Shown in pieces: positions 9,001-15,000 of a DNA stretch of 64,000 bases (its first letter is position 1; every line of letters starts with the position of its first letter). The DNA is from Escherichia coli (GTDB lineage: Bacteria; Pseudomonadota; Gammaproteobacteria; Enterobacterales; Enterobacteriaceae). Position numbers: made by a program. Where the stretch lies: assembly GCF_041248615.1 (NCBI RefSeq), contig NZ_CP158425.1; one strand, 5' to 3'.

Positions 9001-12000
9001 TTATTACAACAATCTTAAGCATTTAAATTGATGAAGGAGCTCAGGTCAGCTGACTTCGTCGTAAAACTGCCGCAAGCGCTGGGAGGCTGCAAATTCAATT
9101 CGTGACTTCAGCAGTTTGGCGACGGCCGCAAAGACATCAACGACCACGGAGTTCCCAAACTGTCTGTAAGCCTGTGTATTGGACACAGGGATACGGAAAA
9201 CACTTTCCCCGGGTTTATCGAAGCCCATTAGCCTGCTGCATTCACGTGGCGTTAGCATGCGTGGCCGACGGTCCATGTTGTATGTGTTATGGAAATCAGT
9301 TTCTCCCAGTTCATGAGACCAACCCCGATCAATAAGAATTTCAGATCCGTCTTTCATATAGCGGCTTGAGAGGGTTCTGGTGACACTATTAACATTGGAA
9401 GGATCTACTAGTCCAAAACCAAAACCATTGCCTTTTGCCGCATGTTTCTTTGCATAGTTGTATAAGTACTCCCAGAGTTTAGGGGAGAGGATGTATTTAC
9501 TATCTACGCTCGGATCCAGTAAATCTGAGAGAGAAGGGCGCTTGTCCGGATAAAAGTCTTTAATGTCTCTCAGAGTAAAACCGTCTTTCAGACGTAGGTC
9601 GCGGCGAAAACCAATAAGGACGATACGTTCACGGTGCTGGGGTCGGAAATGACGGCCATCGATGACTTTAGGATCATCCGCGCCCGTGCTTTCGCTGTTT
9701 GCGACGTCGTAGCCAAGCTCATCGAGCGTTTTCATGATGATGTTAAAGGTATTACCCTTATCGTGACTCTTCAGATTTTTTACGTTTTCCAGAACAAAAA
9801 TTGCAGGTTGTTTTGCCCGGATGATCCTGGCCACATCAAAGAAGAGCGTACCCTGAGTGTCGCACTCGAAACCGTGTTTGCGACCCATAGAGTTCTTTTT
9901 ACTGACACCGGCGATGCTGAATGGCTGGCATGGAAATCCCGCAAGAAGAACATCATGATCCGGGATAGAGGCATCGATAAATTTGTATGCCTCGTCATCA
10001 GTAACCTCGGGCCGGTTGCTAAGAGTGATGTCACGGATGTCTGAATTGAAGCGGTGCTCGTTCTCATCGCAATACCAGTTCGCCCGGTAAGTACGGCTGG
10101 AATAAGTATTCCATTCGCTCGTGAAAAGACATTTACCACCGATGGCATCAAATCCGCTTCGCAGTCCACCTATCCCTGCAAACAGATCGATAAAGCTAAA
10201 GTGCCTGTCCTCATAATCAGCAGGTCGTGAAGGTATTAAAGTCTGTAGATAGCGTCCATCTGCGATACTCAGCTCACAATGCTCAGGTATGCATGTAACC
10301 TGACGTTTAAGGGATGCACGGGACCAATTACTGCCATTTTCATCATTTAATACCTGAGCCAGATATTTCAGGTCATAAATGGTCGAAGCTGTTAACAAAG
10401 TTTTGTGGATCAGAGATGGTGTTTTATCCACATCATTCAGGTCTGTCTCAAGATCATGAGTGTAACGTTTCATCCAAACTCTCTCAGGAATAATATCTTT
10501 GAGATAGATTAACACGCTTAATTTGGATTATTTTTTGGTTCAGGTTCTAAATTTATTGTGATTATTCTGCCTTTAAGTTGCAAAAAGATTGGTTTTAAGC
10601 CCGCCCATGAAATAATGACTTGTTAAAATACTGCCTGTAAATAGGCTTGTGGATACATGTCTGTACTCAACAAATCAAGGTGAAATGATGTTTTTTTTAA
10701 CAAAGTTACTTTTGCCCATCATGATTGTTGTATTCCCAGTGGCGTCCTGGGGGAACTCAACAACTTTTGAGGCAAAGGTGGTTAAGATTGTTGACGGTGA
10801 CACCATAACTGCGTTGGATGCTCAAAACACAACCATCAAAATACGGATGTATGGTATAGACGCTCCTGAATCTAAACAGGCTTTTGGCCAAAAAGCAAAA
10901 CAGGCCTTAACCACAGCTATAGCAACTAAAATCGTTACCGTGATAGACCATGGTACGGATATCTATGGCCGTATGTTAGGTACCATCTGGTTAGATGGAT
11001 ATGATATCAATGCCTCTATGGTGGACAGTGGATATGCGTGGGTTTATCGGTTCGAAGATAACGCCATTGTCCCTGGCTATATCAAATATGAATCCGCAGC
11101 ACAAAAGGAGGCAAAAGGGTTATGGGCAGACACCAACCCTGTCCCACCATGGCAGTGGAGACAGGCAAACGAAAAGCCCAGAAAGGTGAAAGAGAAGAAA
11201 TAACCATGATGAAAGAGCCTCATCCGTTACTTCAGTTGGTACTAAACGATTCCGGTCGTCTAACCATGCCTGTTTATTATAGAGATCAACAGTATTGCCC
11301 GACTTGCCTTACAAAGGTGTTGAAGAGTGAGGATGGAAGTTTGGCGCACCTCGGGGAAATAAATCAAAATACATGTAGACCTTCTATTTCAGTAGTTGTG
11401 ACAAAAGCAATTATTGAAATGTTATGTGACGGGGAAAAAATATATGTAAATCCAATACGACACCGAGGCCGGGTGCTGGCACCCTCAGTAATTTTTTCTC
11501 CCGACACTCACACTTTCAAACCGTTTATAAATACAGACTATCAGCCTGTGGGAGCAAACTGGAAAAGTGAAAAGGGATATAAACTCGGTCTGTTTTATCT
11601 CAAAGATCGAGCCAACTCTATCAATAAAGAGGAATTTGATTTCATTGCCGTTATAGACCCTGAGGCAATGCAGAAAGAATTTATTTCGGCCTGGTCTGAG
11701 GTTGATGAAAAAAATCCATTGGAAACGCTGAAGCAGATCTTACGATCTAAAAACAACTCTTCTTTATGGGTAAAATGGCCTGGCAAAATTGAGCATGCGC
11801 AAAAAGGAAATTACAACGAAAATTACTGGTTCGATTATCAATCTGATAATCAGGAAGTGAACTGTACGGTCTCTGTTGTAGGTATCGAAGGTAACAGTTC
11901 CGGTGAGACAATTTATAGATTGCAAACTTTGCTAAAGCGTAAGCTCAATGAATATCAACTGGTTCGGTCTTTAGGGACTATTATGCTTCTTGATAATACC

Positions 12001-15000
12001 GGGAATATGATTCCATCAAACCATCCTTATTTTGAAGTCATCTCAAAAGCATGTATAAATGGAGTGCGTGACTTTGTTCGTCAAAACCCGTGGGTAGTCT
12101 GACGGTCAACTATAAAGCATAATATAATTAGTAATAACAAGGAACAGACATGAATGAAAACTCAGTAATCTTAATAAGTTTATTTTGGTTTTTTTTGGGA
12201 TCGAGTGTTGTAGCTGGTTTTATGGATGCATCATTATATTGCTGGATTTTTGCAGCCATAAGCGCATTGTTTCTTCTTTCGGTGATACAAACACCAAAGG
12301 AGTTAACGGTATCTATTAGTCATATGACAAGCAAAACGCTGATCTCAAAGACAGATGATGGATACACATTTAGCATTTCACCTTACGGAGACGGGTACCG
12401 CTTATCAGTCTCGCCTGAAAATCGTCACAATGGTACCCAAAGCTTTGACGGCTGGTTCCCACGTTTTTTTTCCGAACCACAGTATGCCAAATCATCTTTA
12501 ACTAAATTTCTCGGTGAGTCCTTAGTATGGGAAGAAGATTCAAGTAATGCTCTATGAGATTACTTATTATAAATTTTTCTATTAATCTCCATGGAGTGAT
12601 ATATGAATTTGGCCTATTTTTTATTTTTGTCTATAACTGTTATGCTTACGAGCTTTATTATTAAATCACTTGTCGTATTGGTAAAGTTCAAATTACTTCG
12701 TGATGAACGTCTCGAATATACCAGCAATAAAAATATTGATGAGATGTACGATTTAATGAATGCGAAGGAAGAAATCCTCATAAGGCATCATAAGCAGATG
12801 TTGGCATTGCATCTTTCACTATTAATATTCGTTCTATTTATTGCTTACATTTACTAAAAATAATTTTATTCAACATTTCAACAAAGGGTTTTCAATGGAA
12901 AGCTTCGAAACTGAACAAATGATTCAATATGCTTTCTACATAAATATCGTAATAACGACTGGTTTGGCATGGTTTTGCTTGCGGTCAGGATTGCATTACA
13001 ATTTTTTCAGAAAAGCAGAGAGTGCCAGAACAAAAGGGCTGAGTAGTACCTCTACTGAACACGGTCCAGCAATAGTGAGACTAAAGAAGCTACAAGCATT
13101 AGTAGATTTTATTAGTAACTGTGCTTTTCTAATCCTTTCAATTGGCACAGCTTATATTTTGTATGTTTGGAGCCACAGTTAACTCATACGAGGTAACTTC
13201 GGCAGGTAACAACTTCTAATGCAGGACTTTAATAACTCTAAGGGATTCTACATGAAAAAAGACGATCTAATTACGCGTTGTAAATTACTTAAAGGCGAAC
13301 GCGATGAGTCTATCTTTACCATATTAATTGGGATAGTAGTAAAGCTGGGGCTGGTAGGCCTGGCATTCTATCTGTTGCTTGGTTCCACGATTGATTGGTC
13401 AAGCTGGAAAACTTATGCCGCCATGTTGATCTTGGGAGCATTTCTCTAAAATCTTGAACCTTTTTTCACTCATTACAAGCCATGACCTAGTGCGTAGATC
13501 ATACGATCTTTAAACCTTATGTCATTGATTTATAAGTACATATAACAAAGATTATGTTAAATACTGTATGTATGTACAGCATCAACAGTTGCCCCCCTCA
13601 TATTGAGGTAATTGCTACATTCATACCACTATTCTTCTTATAGTATCGACATCCTGAATTATTGCACCCTACTGCTTTGTCTTTAGCTGTTCCGAATTAA
13701 AATTCATTGCTCAATTTGGATCACATGACGATCAGCGTATTCCTTTGCTTTATCAAAGTTAAGTTTTTAAAACATAAGATATGTAATGACAAATTCTCAA
13801 TCTGATTTTCCTTTGAACGATCAAAATTTTCAGGCAGATTTGCTGAAAATCAAAAAGGTTTTCGCCGACCTTATAACGCAGGCATCAGATGGTAAGATAC
13901 CCATAAGGTCTTCTCATGTACACGGCTTACACCATTTCGAGGAGCTCTACATCCGGGCAAGAGCAGGCATGTGTTCGGTCCTGGGATATCCGGTCATGGT
14001 TGTTTCAACTATCTCAGTTAAAGAGCCCGGCACAGGCATTTTTAGAGCGCTTCTTGCAGAATTGAAATGTATTGCAGATGAACAAAATTACATTTTGAAA
14101 ATTGAAAATGTACTGCCTCCCCTATTCCGCAAATACCTTATTCAAGAAGGTTTTGTTTTCCCAGGTGAACCTTGGATGTGTGGTTCCGGCTATTGGTTTA
14201 AGAACCCACAAGTACTTCATGAAAATATTGAGTTATTATCTGTTTAAGTCGATCTAACAATTTCACTGGAGCTAACATGTCCCCGGAATTGGTATCAGAC
14301 ATTGCAAGAGTGGCGCATGAAAAGCTACTTTCAATTTTAACGGAGTGCGGCATAGAGAAGACGGCAGGCACTTGCCTTTTTGCAAGCTATCTTGTGTGTT
14401 ATTTAGCAAAAACTAAAGGTCTAGATGCTGTTGTCCGTGGGGGTAACGGTGCAGATGATGGCGGTATATTTATAGAGTGTGGTGGCTTTGGCCATTATTG
14501 GTGTGAGTTGAATTTCGAAGAAGTGCAATATTATATTGACATCACTTCCGAACAGTTTGGGTTTCATCCATACATAGTGAAACTCGCCAACGATATAACA
14601 GGATGGCCTCGATATATTCCTGGTGATCAGGAAACGGTCGATAGTCATTTAGAACAATTATTACGCGACGGCTATACAGAATAGGCTGCGTATACCCTAT
14701 CGCAGCCTTTCAGGCTCTTAACCCTTGTGACCTGTTAACGGAACCACTCAGGATGACGCTGCCGATCAACTTTGATAACCTGCGAATTAAATTCAACGAC
14801 ATCCGCTGGAGTAAGCATTAATTCATCAGGATTTACAATAAATGGTCTTAAAACCACTTCGCCACCGTCTTCTTTTGCACCGTAGATATTAATAAGAAAG
14901 TGCAGTCGTTGATTTCCTTCAGCATTGCGTTGCCATTCTCTAAAAGTCAAAGTTTGTTTAATATAGTTTGTTAAAAGAAATGCGAATTCAGATTCTTCCG

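Follow-up and report, generated by a model that had tools for sequence, protein, structure and literature searches.

In a 64,000-nucleotide stretch of Escherichia coli DNA (NCBI RefSeq assembly GCF_041248615.1, contig NZ_CP158425.1; hereafter the window), a gene for a nuclease of the staphylococcal nuclease (SNase, or thermonuclease) family at positions 10685-11203 of the plus strand is followed directly by a gene for a 298-aa protein at 11206-12102 of the same strand, here called the partner. Together the two genes make up a genuine module that is conserved in a clinically important group of plasmids, and its second component is an orphan. The strongest result of the analysis is the pairing itself: adjacency to an SNase gene is obligate for every full-length member of the partner family examined. 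A previous sequence-only reading had placed the module at 10685-12102 with the partner ATG 2 nucleotides (nt) past the nuclease stop, a geometry that the sequence confirms, and the tight link it drew between the genes has proved stronger than one window shows.

Among the main vehicles of resistance to multiple drugs, to colistin and to metals in E. coli, Salmonella and Enterobacter are the IncHI2 plasmids, and the pair belongs to the conserved backbone of these plasmids, represented by more than 1,100 sequenced examples. Exported SNases are found on thousands of conjugative plasmids, where their role is a decades-old question, and the constant companion of one subset of them offers an experimental handle. 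Should the partner bind the nuclease, a textbook enzyme would gain an inhibitor of new fold; otherwise the partner would represent a new family, probably nucleic-acid-binding.

Conservation of the pair

Ten diverged lineages were compared, namely the window, L002, L006, L007, L011, L013, L016, L018, L019 and L020, in which the identity of the partner to that of the window ranges from 52% to 22%. A full-length partner gene lies directly after a signal-peptide SNase gene in all ten, with spacings from SNase stop to partner start, in the same order, of +2, +5, -4, -8, +11, +17, +5, -4, +5 and -4 nt; some of these junctions are ATGA-type overlaps. The partner likewise comes immediately after the SNase in the IncHI1B plasmid pPSV. 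The split in topology is kept as well, each paired SNase of the ten lineages carrying a signal peptide and each partner lacking one.

Such regularity could reflect nothing but gene order inherited within one small clade of mobile elements, with a partner whose function is unrelated to the nuclease. As the partner family is tiny and restricted to mobile elements of Enterobacterales, all pairs could share one ancestral arrangement, and the larger block running from DUF4942 to the partner is syntenic too. However, synteny of the pair holds at 22-27% identity, and it holds in L013, where the Dcm-type methylase, DUF1173 and the rest of the shared block have been lost. Further, the genes downstream of the pair vary freely, encompassing Thoeris, type VI secretion system (T6SS) genes, Big-domain proteins and a PLD-family protein, whereas overlapping or near-overlapping stop and start codons are maintained. 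We regard inherited order alone as an unlikely explanation.

Purifying selection acts on both the SNase gene (omega 0.10) and the partner gene (omega ~0.18), and non-synonymous divergence (dN) of the partner proceeds 3-6 times faster than that of the nuclease. Mean pairwise identity is 35.6% for the partner versus 63.5% for the nuclease, and in none of the 45 pairs is the partner the more conserved of the two; between L006 and L018, for example, the nucleases are 86% identical and the partners 49%. The distance matrices of the two proteins correlate with a Spearman coefficient of 0.87, which fits either co-inheritance or co-evolution. By analogy, fast evolution of the partner together with correlated matrices is reminiscent of nuclease/immunity pairs.

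The nuclease and its predicted export

The nuclease gene has a Shine-Dalgarno sequence, AAGGTGA, upstream of an ATGATG at 10685/10688 and ends in a TAA at 11201-11203. Its 172-aa product comprises a signal peptide of about residues 1-23 (10685 to ~10753), the mature nuclease domain and a basic C-terminal tail. The sequence-only reading had described a signal peptide and thermonuclease motifs, and both descriptions hold. The protein matches Pfam PF00565 over the whole profile (1-107) with 85.6 bits against a cut-off of 21 (E=3.9e-24), and alignment of the motifs DGDT, R..D.PE and YGR yields equivalents of D21, R35, D40, E43 and R87 of staphylococcal nuclease, leaving the catalytic set intact. 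T41 of staphylococcal nuclease, which contacts Ca2+ via its backbone, is replaced by Ala. The protein conforms to the OB-fold structure of the SNase family and is predicted to be a Ca2+-type DNase/RNase of the staphylococcal-nuclease type. By inspection and hydropathy, the signal peptides of the ten lineages show n, h and c regions and a small-residue cleavage site, features that point to export via Sec to the periplasm or beyond.

Scores against NCBIfam equivalogs stay below cut-off, at 68 bits versus 180 for the calcium-activated nuclease EcnA (NF047969) and 49 versus 250 for NucI (NF047694); the nuclease is a relative of these equivalogs, not a member. It is, rather, an ordinary member of the plasmid thermonuclease group. 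Other plasmid thermonucleases (IncC; IncFIB/IncHI1B of Klebsiella; rhizobial pLPU83a) are homologous signal-peptide SNases of 38-52% identity on conjugative MOBH plasmids, sometimes sharing a DUF1173 neighbour and lying near psiA or H-NS genes. Unlike the window nuclease, they have no partner, and the next gene encodes a PLD-family, HU or WGR protein. The parCBA genes of RP4/RK2, in which parB is listed as 'Nuclease' (PMC7314908), offer another comparison. There, a plasmid nuclease is co-transcribed with cytoplasmic DNA-processing proteins, which in RP4 are the resolvase ParA and ParC, whereas the window partner has no resolvase or other known domain and gene order and neighbourhood differ. 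RP4 ParB is an SNase homolog with Ca2+-dependent activity and counts among the relatives of the window nuclease.

In PADLOC, the SNase domain alone matches the candidate 'SNc+LTD' model (E=3e-11), the partner has no match, and the pair fits none of the anti-phage defence systems defined there. A search of the literature on 'EcnA', as NCBIfam names the nearest equivalog, returned nothing relevant; in papers on IncHI2 and R478, 'nuclease' occurs only as S1 nuclease or nuclease-free water, and SNase-type nucleases go unmentioned in the paper on leading-region anti-defence. Since the MobH relaxase lies ~66 kb from the module in one plasmid, no leading-region location is claimed.

The junction and the putative operon

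The junction at 11201-11208 consists of the TAA stop, CC and the ATG start of the partner at 11206; a weak purine-rich, Shine-Dalgarno-like GAGAAG lies within the 3' end of the nuclease gene. The promoter/terminator scan found no terminator-like site between the two genes, which, with the spacings at the ten loci, is in line with the predicted co-expression of the pair. Upstream, between dcm and the nuclease operon, gene coordinates define a divergent, AT-rich intergenic stretch (10474-10684) that is presumed to hold the promoter; promoter-like matches in it are no more frequent than chance, and the same goes for the terminator scan. In H5 and H6, an IS3-family insertion sequence (IS) element sits in this presumed promoter region. 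The insertion was considered as a disruption of the partner and the idea rejected, as nuclease and partner are both intact.

Some gene callers start the partner at an ATG at 11149, giving a 317-aa product (cluster P0001, 877 member sequences) and a 55-nt overlap with the nuclease gene; the family alignment favours the start at 11206.

A third operon member may follow. The 135-aa open reading frame (ORF) at 12150-12557 (plus strand) has in its C-terminal ~70 aa a conserved small protein that is often found after the pair. ORFs of ~76 aa with 52-63% identity to its product lie just after the partner in L002/L003/L027, L020, L006 and L015 (L002 6961-7191; L027 4946-5176; L020 3637-3858; L006 7696-7923; L015 2639-2833), and the window copy is fused to, or called with, an additional N-terminal hydrophobic segment. 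The small protein has no Pfam family and is absent after the pair in L007, L011, L013, L016 and L019.

The orphan partner family

The description of the partner as a 298-aa protein with a CPTC motif and no signal peptide stands: CPTC occupies residues 31-34, and the N-terminus is not hydrophobic. The protein is predicted to be cytoplasmic; a Cys module at the N-terminus is followed by an alpha/beta core and, at the C-terminus, by a sheet of four strands with a helix. Conservation in the alignment suggests that C31-P-T-C34, H47 and C57 (11296-11376, plus strand) form a putative zinc-ribbon-like module. Conservation of C57 reaches at least 90%, and most family members have the CxxC; P0045 and P0049 have an expanded CPxCG form, P0022/P0023/P0042 have lost the module and the short homologs P0050-P0054 lack it. 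Other conserved motifs are YQPxGAxWKSxKG, DFIAVIDP, WVKWP, GETIY, LLLDNTGN and AC, and residues W119, E234 and D263 are invariant. With a median isoelectric point of 7.0 (range 5.5-9.0), the family is neutral, which backs neither an acidic DNA mimic nor a basic DNA binder.

The family is undescribed in every library searched and in the literature covered. The partner has zero matches in Pfam, NCBIfam, PADLOC, PHROGs and PDB sequences, and the NCBI annotation reads 'hypothetical protein', next to 'thermonuclease family protein' for the nuclease. A word-indexed search of 5.8 billion proteins gathered 34 clusters; a profile run exhaustively against 1.84 billion representatives gave only 25 matches at E<=0.001, and 100,044 species-representative genomes a single short contig (L015). 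Given so few matches in protein and genome searches, the family is tiny and limited to mobile elements, all of them of Enterobacterales. No function could be assigned from family, fold and literature searches, be it one unrelated to the nuclease, which the sequence-only reading had named as grounds for abandoning its proposal, or any other.

Two possible homologies were pursued and rejected. A WGR domain was suggested by the rhizobial thermonuclease/WGR operon, by two weak Foldseek rows for PARP2-WGR and by motif likeness judged by eye; a profile of the C-terminal region retrieves neither a PARP/WGR chain from the PDB at E<=10 nor WGR from Pfam, and the sole trace is a Foldseek probability of 0.05-0.08. 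SpoVG, a nucleic-acid-binding protein of Firmicutes (PF04026), may resemble the partner at the level of fold only, over about a quarter of the protein and in a model of moderate confidence; the sequence relationship is undetectable, the C-terminal domain having no Pfam match at E<=10 and hhalign giving a probability of 0.3%.

Further, a frameshifted variant (P0018, 20 NCBI sequences) ends just past the A7 run in gatgaaaaaaatcc (window ~11706-11712), and rare ORFs fuse SNase and partner (P0033, P0034). The frameshift and the fusions could be real mutations or homopolymer/assembly errors.

Proposed role of the partner

The best single explanation, which we put forward tentatively, is that the partner is a non-essential, dedicated cytoplasmic binding partner of the nuclease precursor, a 'safety catch' acting as inhibitor or holding factor and supplied in fixed ratio through coupled translation. 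IncHI2-type plasmids and related islands would thus carry a two-gene operon with the exported SNase first and the cytoplasmic 298-aa protein second; the start codon 2 nt past the stop would couple translation and set the ratio of partner to nuclease, and the partner would neutralise nuclease that folds or lingers in the cytoplasm ahead of export. This model alone accounts for a full-length partner that is never found apart from an SNase and for the preserved stop-start spacing, and it is also compatible with a partner that is dispensable and evolves fast. Were its role that of a backup, this would explain how a dispensable partner comes to be kept in >99% of ~1,140 plasmids.

There is precedent for such an arrangement. 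Cytoplasmic inhibitors of secreted nucleases have been described as 'backup systems ... from sorting failures', and the known inhibitor pairs NucA/NuiA, barnase/barstar and colicin/Im make an exported nuclease with a cytoplasmic partner explicable in principle (PMC2790893). To call a tightly coupled intracellular partner inexplicable, as was done from the sequence alone, was therefore too strong, and the pair is no fundamental surprise, because exported nucleases with intracellular partners are already a known theme. Like the window pair, NucA/NuiA of Anabaena, barnase/barstar and colicin nuclease/Im comprise an exported nuclease and a signal-less, faster-evolving partner encoded by linked, co-expressed genes (the co-expression being a prediction for the window). 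Unlike in those pairs, the window nuclease is SNase-fold and not beta-beta-alpha-Me, barnase or HNH, and the partner is three times larger than inhibitors of the NuiA/barstar/Im type, neutral instead of acidic, and its loss is tolerated. The resemblance to NucA/NuiA and barnase/barstar is one of logic only and fails on inhibitor homology, on size and charge and on toxicity upon loss, and no confident binding is predicted; no sequence or fold similarity of the partner to NuiA, barstar or Im was found. To our knowledge, SNase-family enzymes have no described protein inhibitor.

For the inhibitor, immunity or maturation factor proposed in the sequence-only reading, obligate coupling, fast partner evolution and the compartment split speak in favour, and other observations weigh against it. 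First, natural knockouts exist. An IS1203 insertion that the window lacks splits the partner gene of other plasmids near codon 72, at the site corresponding to 11418-11422 and with a 5-bp duplication, as seen when the window is aligned to L010 by BLAST and in the annotation of NZ_CP012141.1. Five conjugative plasmids, of Shigella, E. coli and Salmonella origin (e.g. NZ_CP012141.1), have an identical junction, and in them the nuclease gene together with the region upstream of it is still 100% identical. As the split is tolerated beside an intact nuclease, the partner is not an essential antidote; the five plasmids give no sign that the nuclease, at whatever level it is expressed there, does harm upon partner loss. 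Partner loss is rare (5 of ~1,140 plasmids), and Dcm is kept in all five, which is uninformative either way. Second, at least 5,000 plasmids carry SNase-type genes, versus ~34 partner clusters. The SNase of pPMK1-NDM (52% identical) is followed by a PLD-family protein and that of IncC (38% identical) by an HU protein, both with no partner, and such partner-less SNases on sister MOBH plasmids are collinear with partnered ones. In L015 the order is SNase, partner and the same PLD protein as in pPMK1-NDM, so the partner behaves as an optional cassette. Third, the more distant and shorter homologs P0049-P0054 keep the invariant core residues and stand alone beside H-NS or ParA/ParB genes with no SNase near, several of them also without the Cys module. 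Fourth, at 298 aa in three modules and with neutral charge, the partner is unlike the small acidic DNA-mimic inhibitors. Finally, SNase requires Ca2+ and is exported unfolded, so that on general grounds any damage it does in the cytoplasm should be slight.

Structure prediction is a further point on that side. Mature SNase, a 30-residue Gly/Ser linker and the partner were modelled as a fusion with the AlphaFold2 (AF2) monomer from an alignment of 11 true pairs. The SNase half reached a predicted local distance difference test (pLDDT) score of ~90 and the partner half ~80, and the whole-chain predicted template modelling score (pTM) was 0.43, roughly as expected for two undocked bodies, for a shallow alignment and no predicted aligned error (PAE). 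The absence of confident docking is a weak negative. Fold prediction, a check suggested along with the inhibitor idea, gave a partner that folds well and a fold with no match to the inhibitors barstar, NuiA and Im or to known nucleases or chaperones.

A maturation or export factor, that is, a cytoplasmic chaperone keeping the precursor export-competent or a cofactor loader, would profit from the same arguments of coupling and topology as an inhibitor. However, dedicated chaperones are generally needless for Sec substrates with classical signal peptides, partner-less SNases with similar signal peptides are common, and the partner bears no likeness to known chaperones and is not predicted with confidence to dock. 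This makes a maturation role improbable.

The partner might instead be an independent cytoplasmic nucleic-acid-binding or DNA-processing factor that is co-expressed with the nuclease in a module for plasmid establishment, competition or anti-defence and makes no contact with it; the two would work in different compartments, the nuclease beyond the cytoplasm and the partner within it, on DNA or RNA. This explanation, the main rival and almost as probable as the binding-partner model, accords better than that model with the domain hints, with the homologs that stand alone and with the negative docking result. Nevertheless, it leaves the obligate coupling unexplained, as the full-length protein is never found off an SNase and the spacing stays within -8 to +17 nt even at 22% identity; further, the likeness to SpoVG is without sequence support and the partner is not basic. 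A bolder and rather unlikely reading is a new two-compartment plasmid system, in which a zinc-ribbon partner of novel fold would either be the first natural SNase inhibitor or sense or mark DNA inside the cell, while the co-translated periplasmic nuclease destroys incoming or extracellular DNA. Its targets would be rival plasmids, transforming DNA or phage DNA in transit, and the rapid change in the partner would in that case be the mark of an arms race.

Some further disruptions and arrangements deserve mention beside the safety-catch proposal. L024 (NZ_LC556211.1, pCC32), typed IncC+IncQ1, carries an IncHI2-type module with an IS3-family element inside the nuclease and an intact partner, the mirror of the IS1203 case. 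Frameshift knockouts suspected in H53 and H62 from 1-nt length differences were rejected, the indel being downstream and the partner intact. The PLD-family (PLDc_2) protein lies right after the SNase at 4067-4885 of L028 (pPMK1-NDM) and after the partner at ~1860-2640 of L015, and psiA and an H-NS gene are found near the pPMK1-NDM SNase. This placement of the PLD-family protein suggests a modular 'nuclease corner' with interchangeable cassettes.

Plasmid setting and neighbouring genes

About 1,120 plasmids of E. coli, Salmonella, Enterobacter, Klebsiella and others carry the region at an identity of at least 99%; they are typed IncHI2A, MOBH and MPF_F, and most are conjugative. The local order is H-NS, DUF6884, DUF4942 and a coiled-coil protein; then, on the minus strand, DUF1173, a 55-aa ORF and the Dcm-type methylase; and, on the plus strand, nuclease and partner. 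The plasmid-borne H-NS family gene upstream of the pair is at 1735-2139 (minus strand). Past the partner come several small membrane-like ORFs and then a Tn3-family transposase (15889-17709, minus strand), with which the accessory/resistance region begins and the conserved backbone segment ends.

The nearest neighbour on the upstream side is the Dcm-type DNA cytosine-5 methyltransferase at 9046-10515 on the minus strand (Pfam DNA_methylase, E=3.8e-75; NCBIfam PRK10458, 845 bits versus a cut-off of 710). As it is divergently transcribed from the pair at most loci, the partner could conceivably serve it as a restriction endonuclease or a Vsr-like mismatch nuclease. However, the partner shows no PD-(D/E)xK, HNH, Vsr or other nuclease family or fold match, and the pair is found without Dcm in L013, which makes the methylase a frequent, non-obligatory neighbour. 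A Dcm/Vsr or restriction-modification module is largely refuted by these two findings and is very improbable.

The DUF1173 protein at 7476-8795 (minus strand; Pfam PF06666, E=4.6e-39), for which a literature search returned nothing relevant, belongs to a larger conserved block at 5164-10515 of the window. This block comprises the DUF4942 protein, the coiled-coil protein of ~400 aa, the divergent DUF1173, the 55-aa ORF and the Dcm-type methylase, the last being its sole member with an assigned function. It recurs in L002-L005, L007, L011, L016, L019, L025 and L027, which include IncHI2/IncHI1B plasmids and chromosome-sized contigs. In several relatives (L002/L005/L027 at ~8.2-9.7 kb, L016 at ~10.4 kb, L006 and L025), genes for defence or competition are found 1-3 kb past the pair, namely a Thoeris-like pair of ThsB-TIR and ThsA-macro, a SMODS (CBASS-type) gene and T6SS sheath genes. 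L015 (JAEWTL010000050.1) is a 5.6-kb contig in a 'Bacillota' metagenome-assembled genome, with an SNase/partner/PLD module whose partner is 52% identical to that of the window; since the module is of enterobacterial type, the contig is probably mis-binned plasmid sequence.

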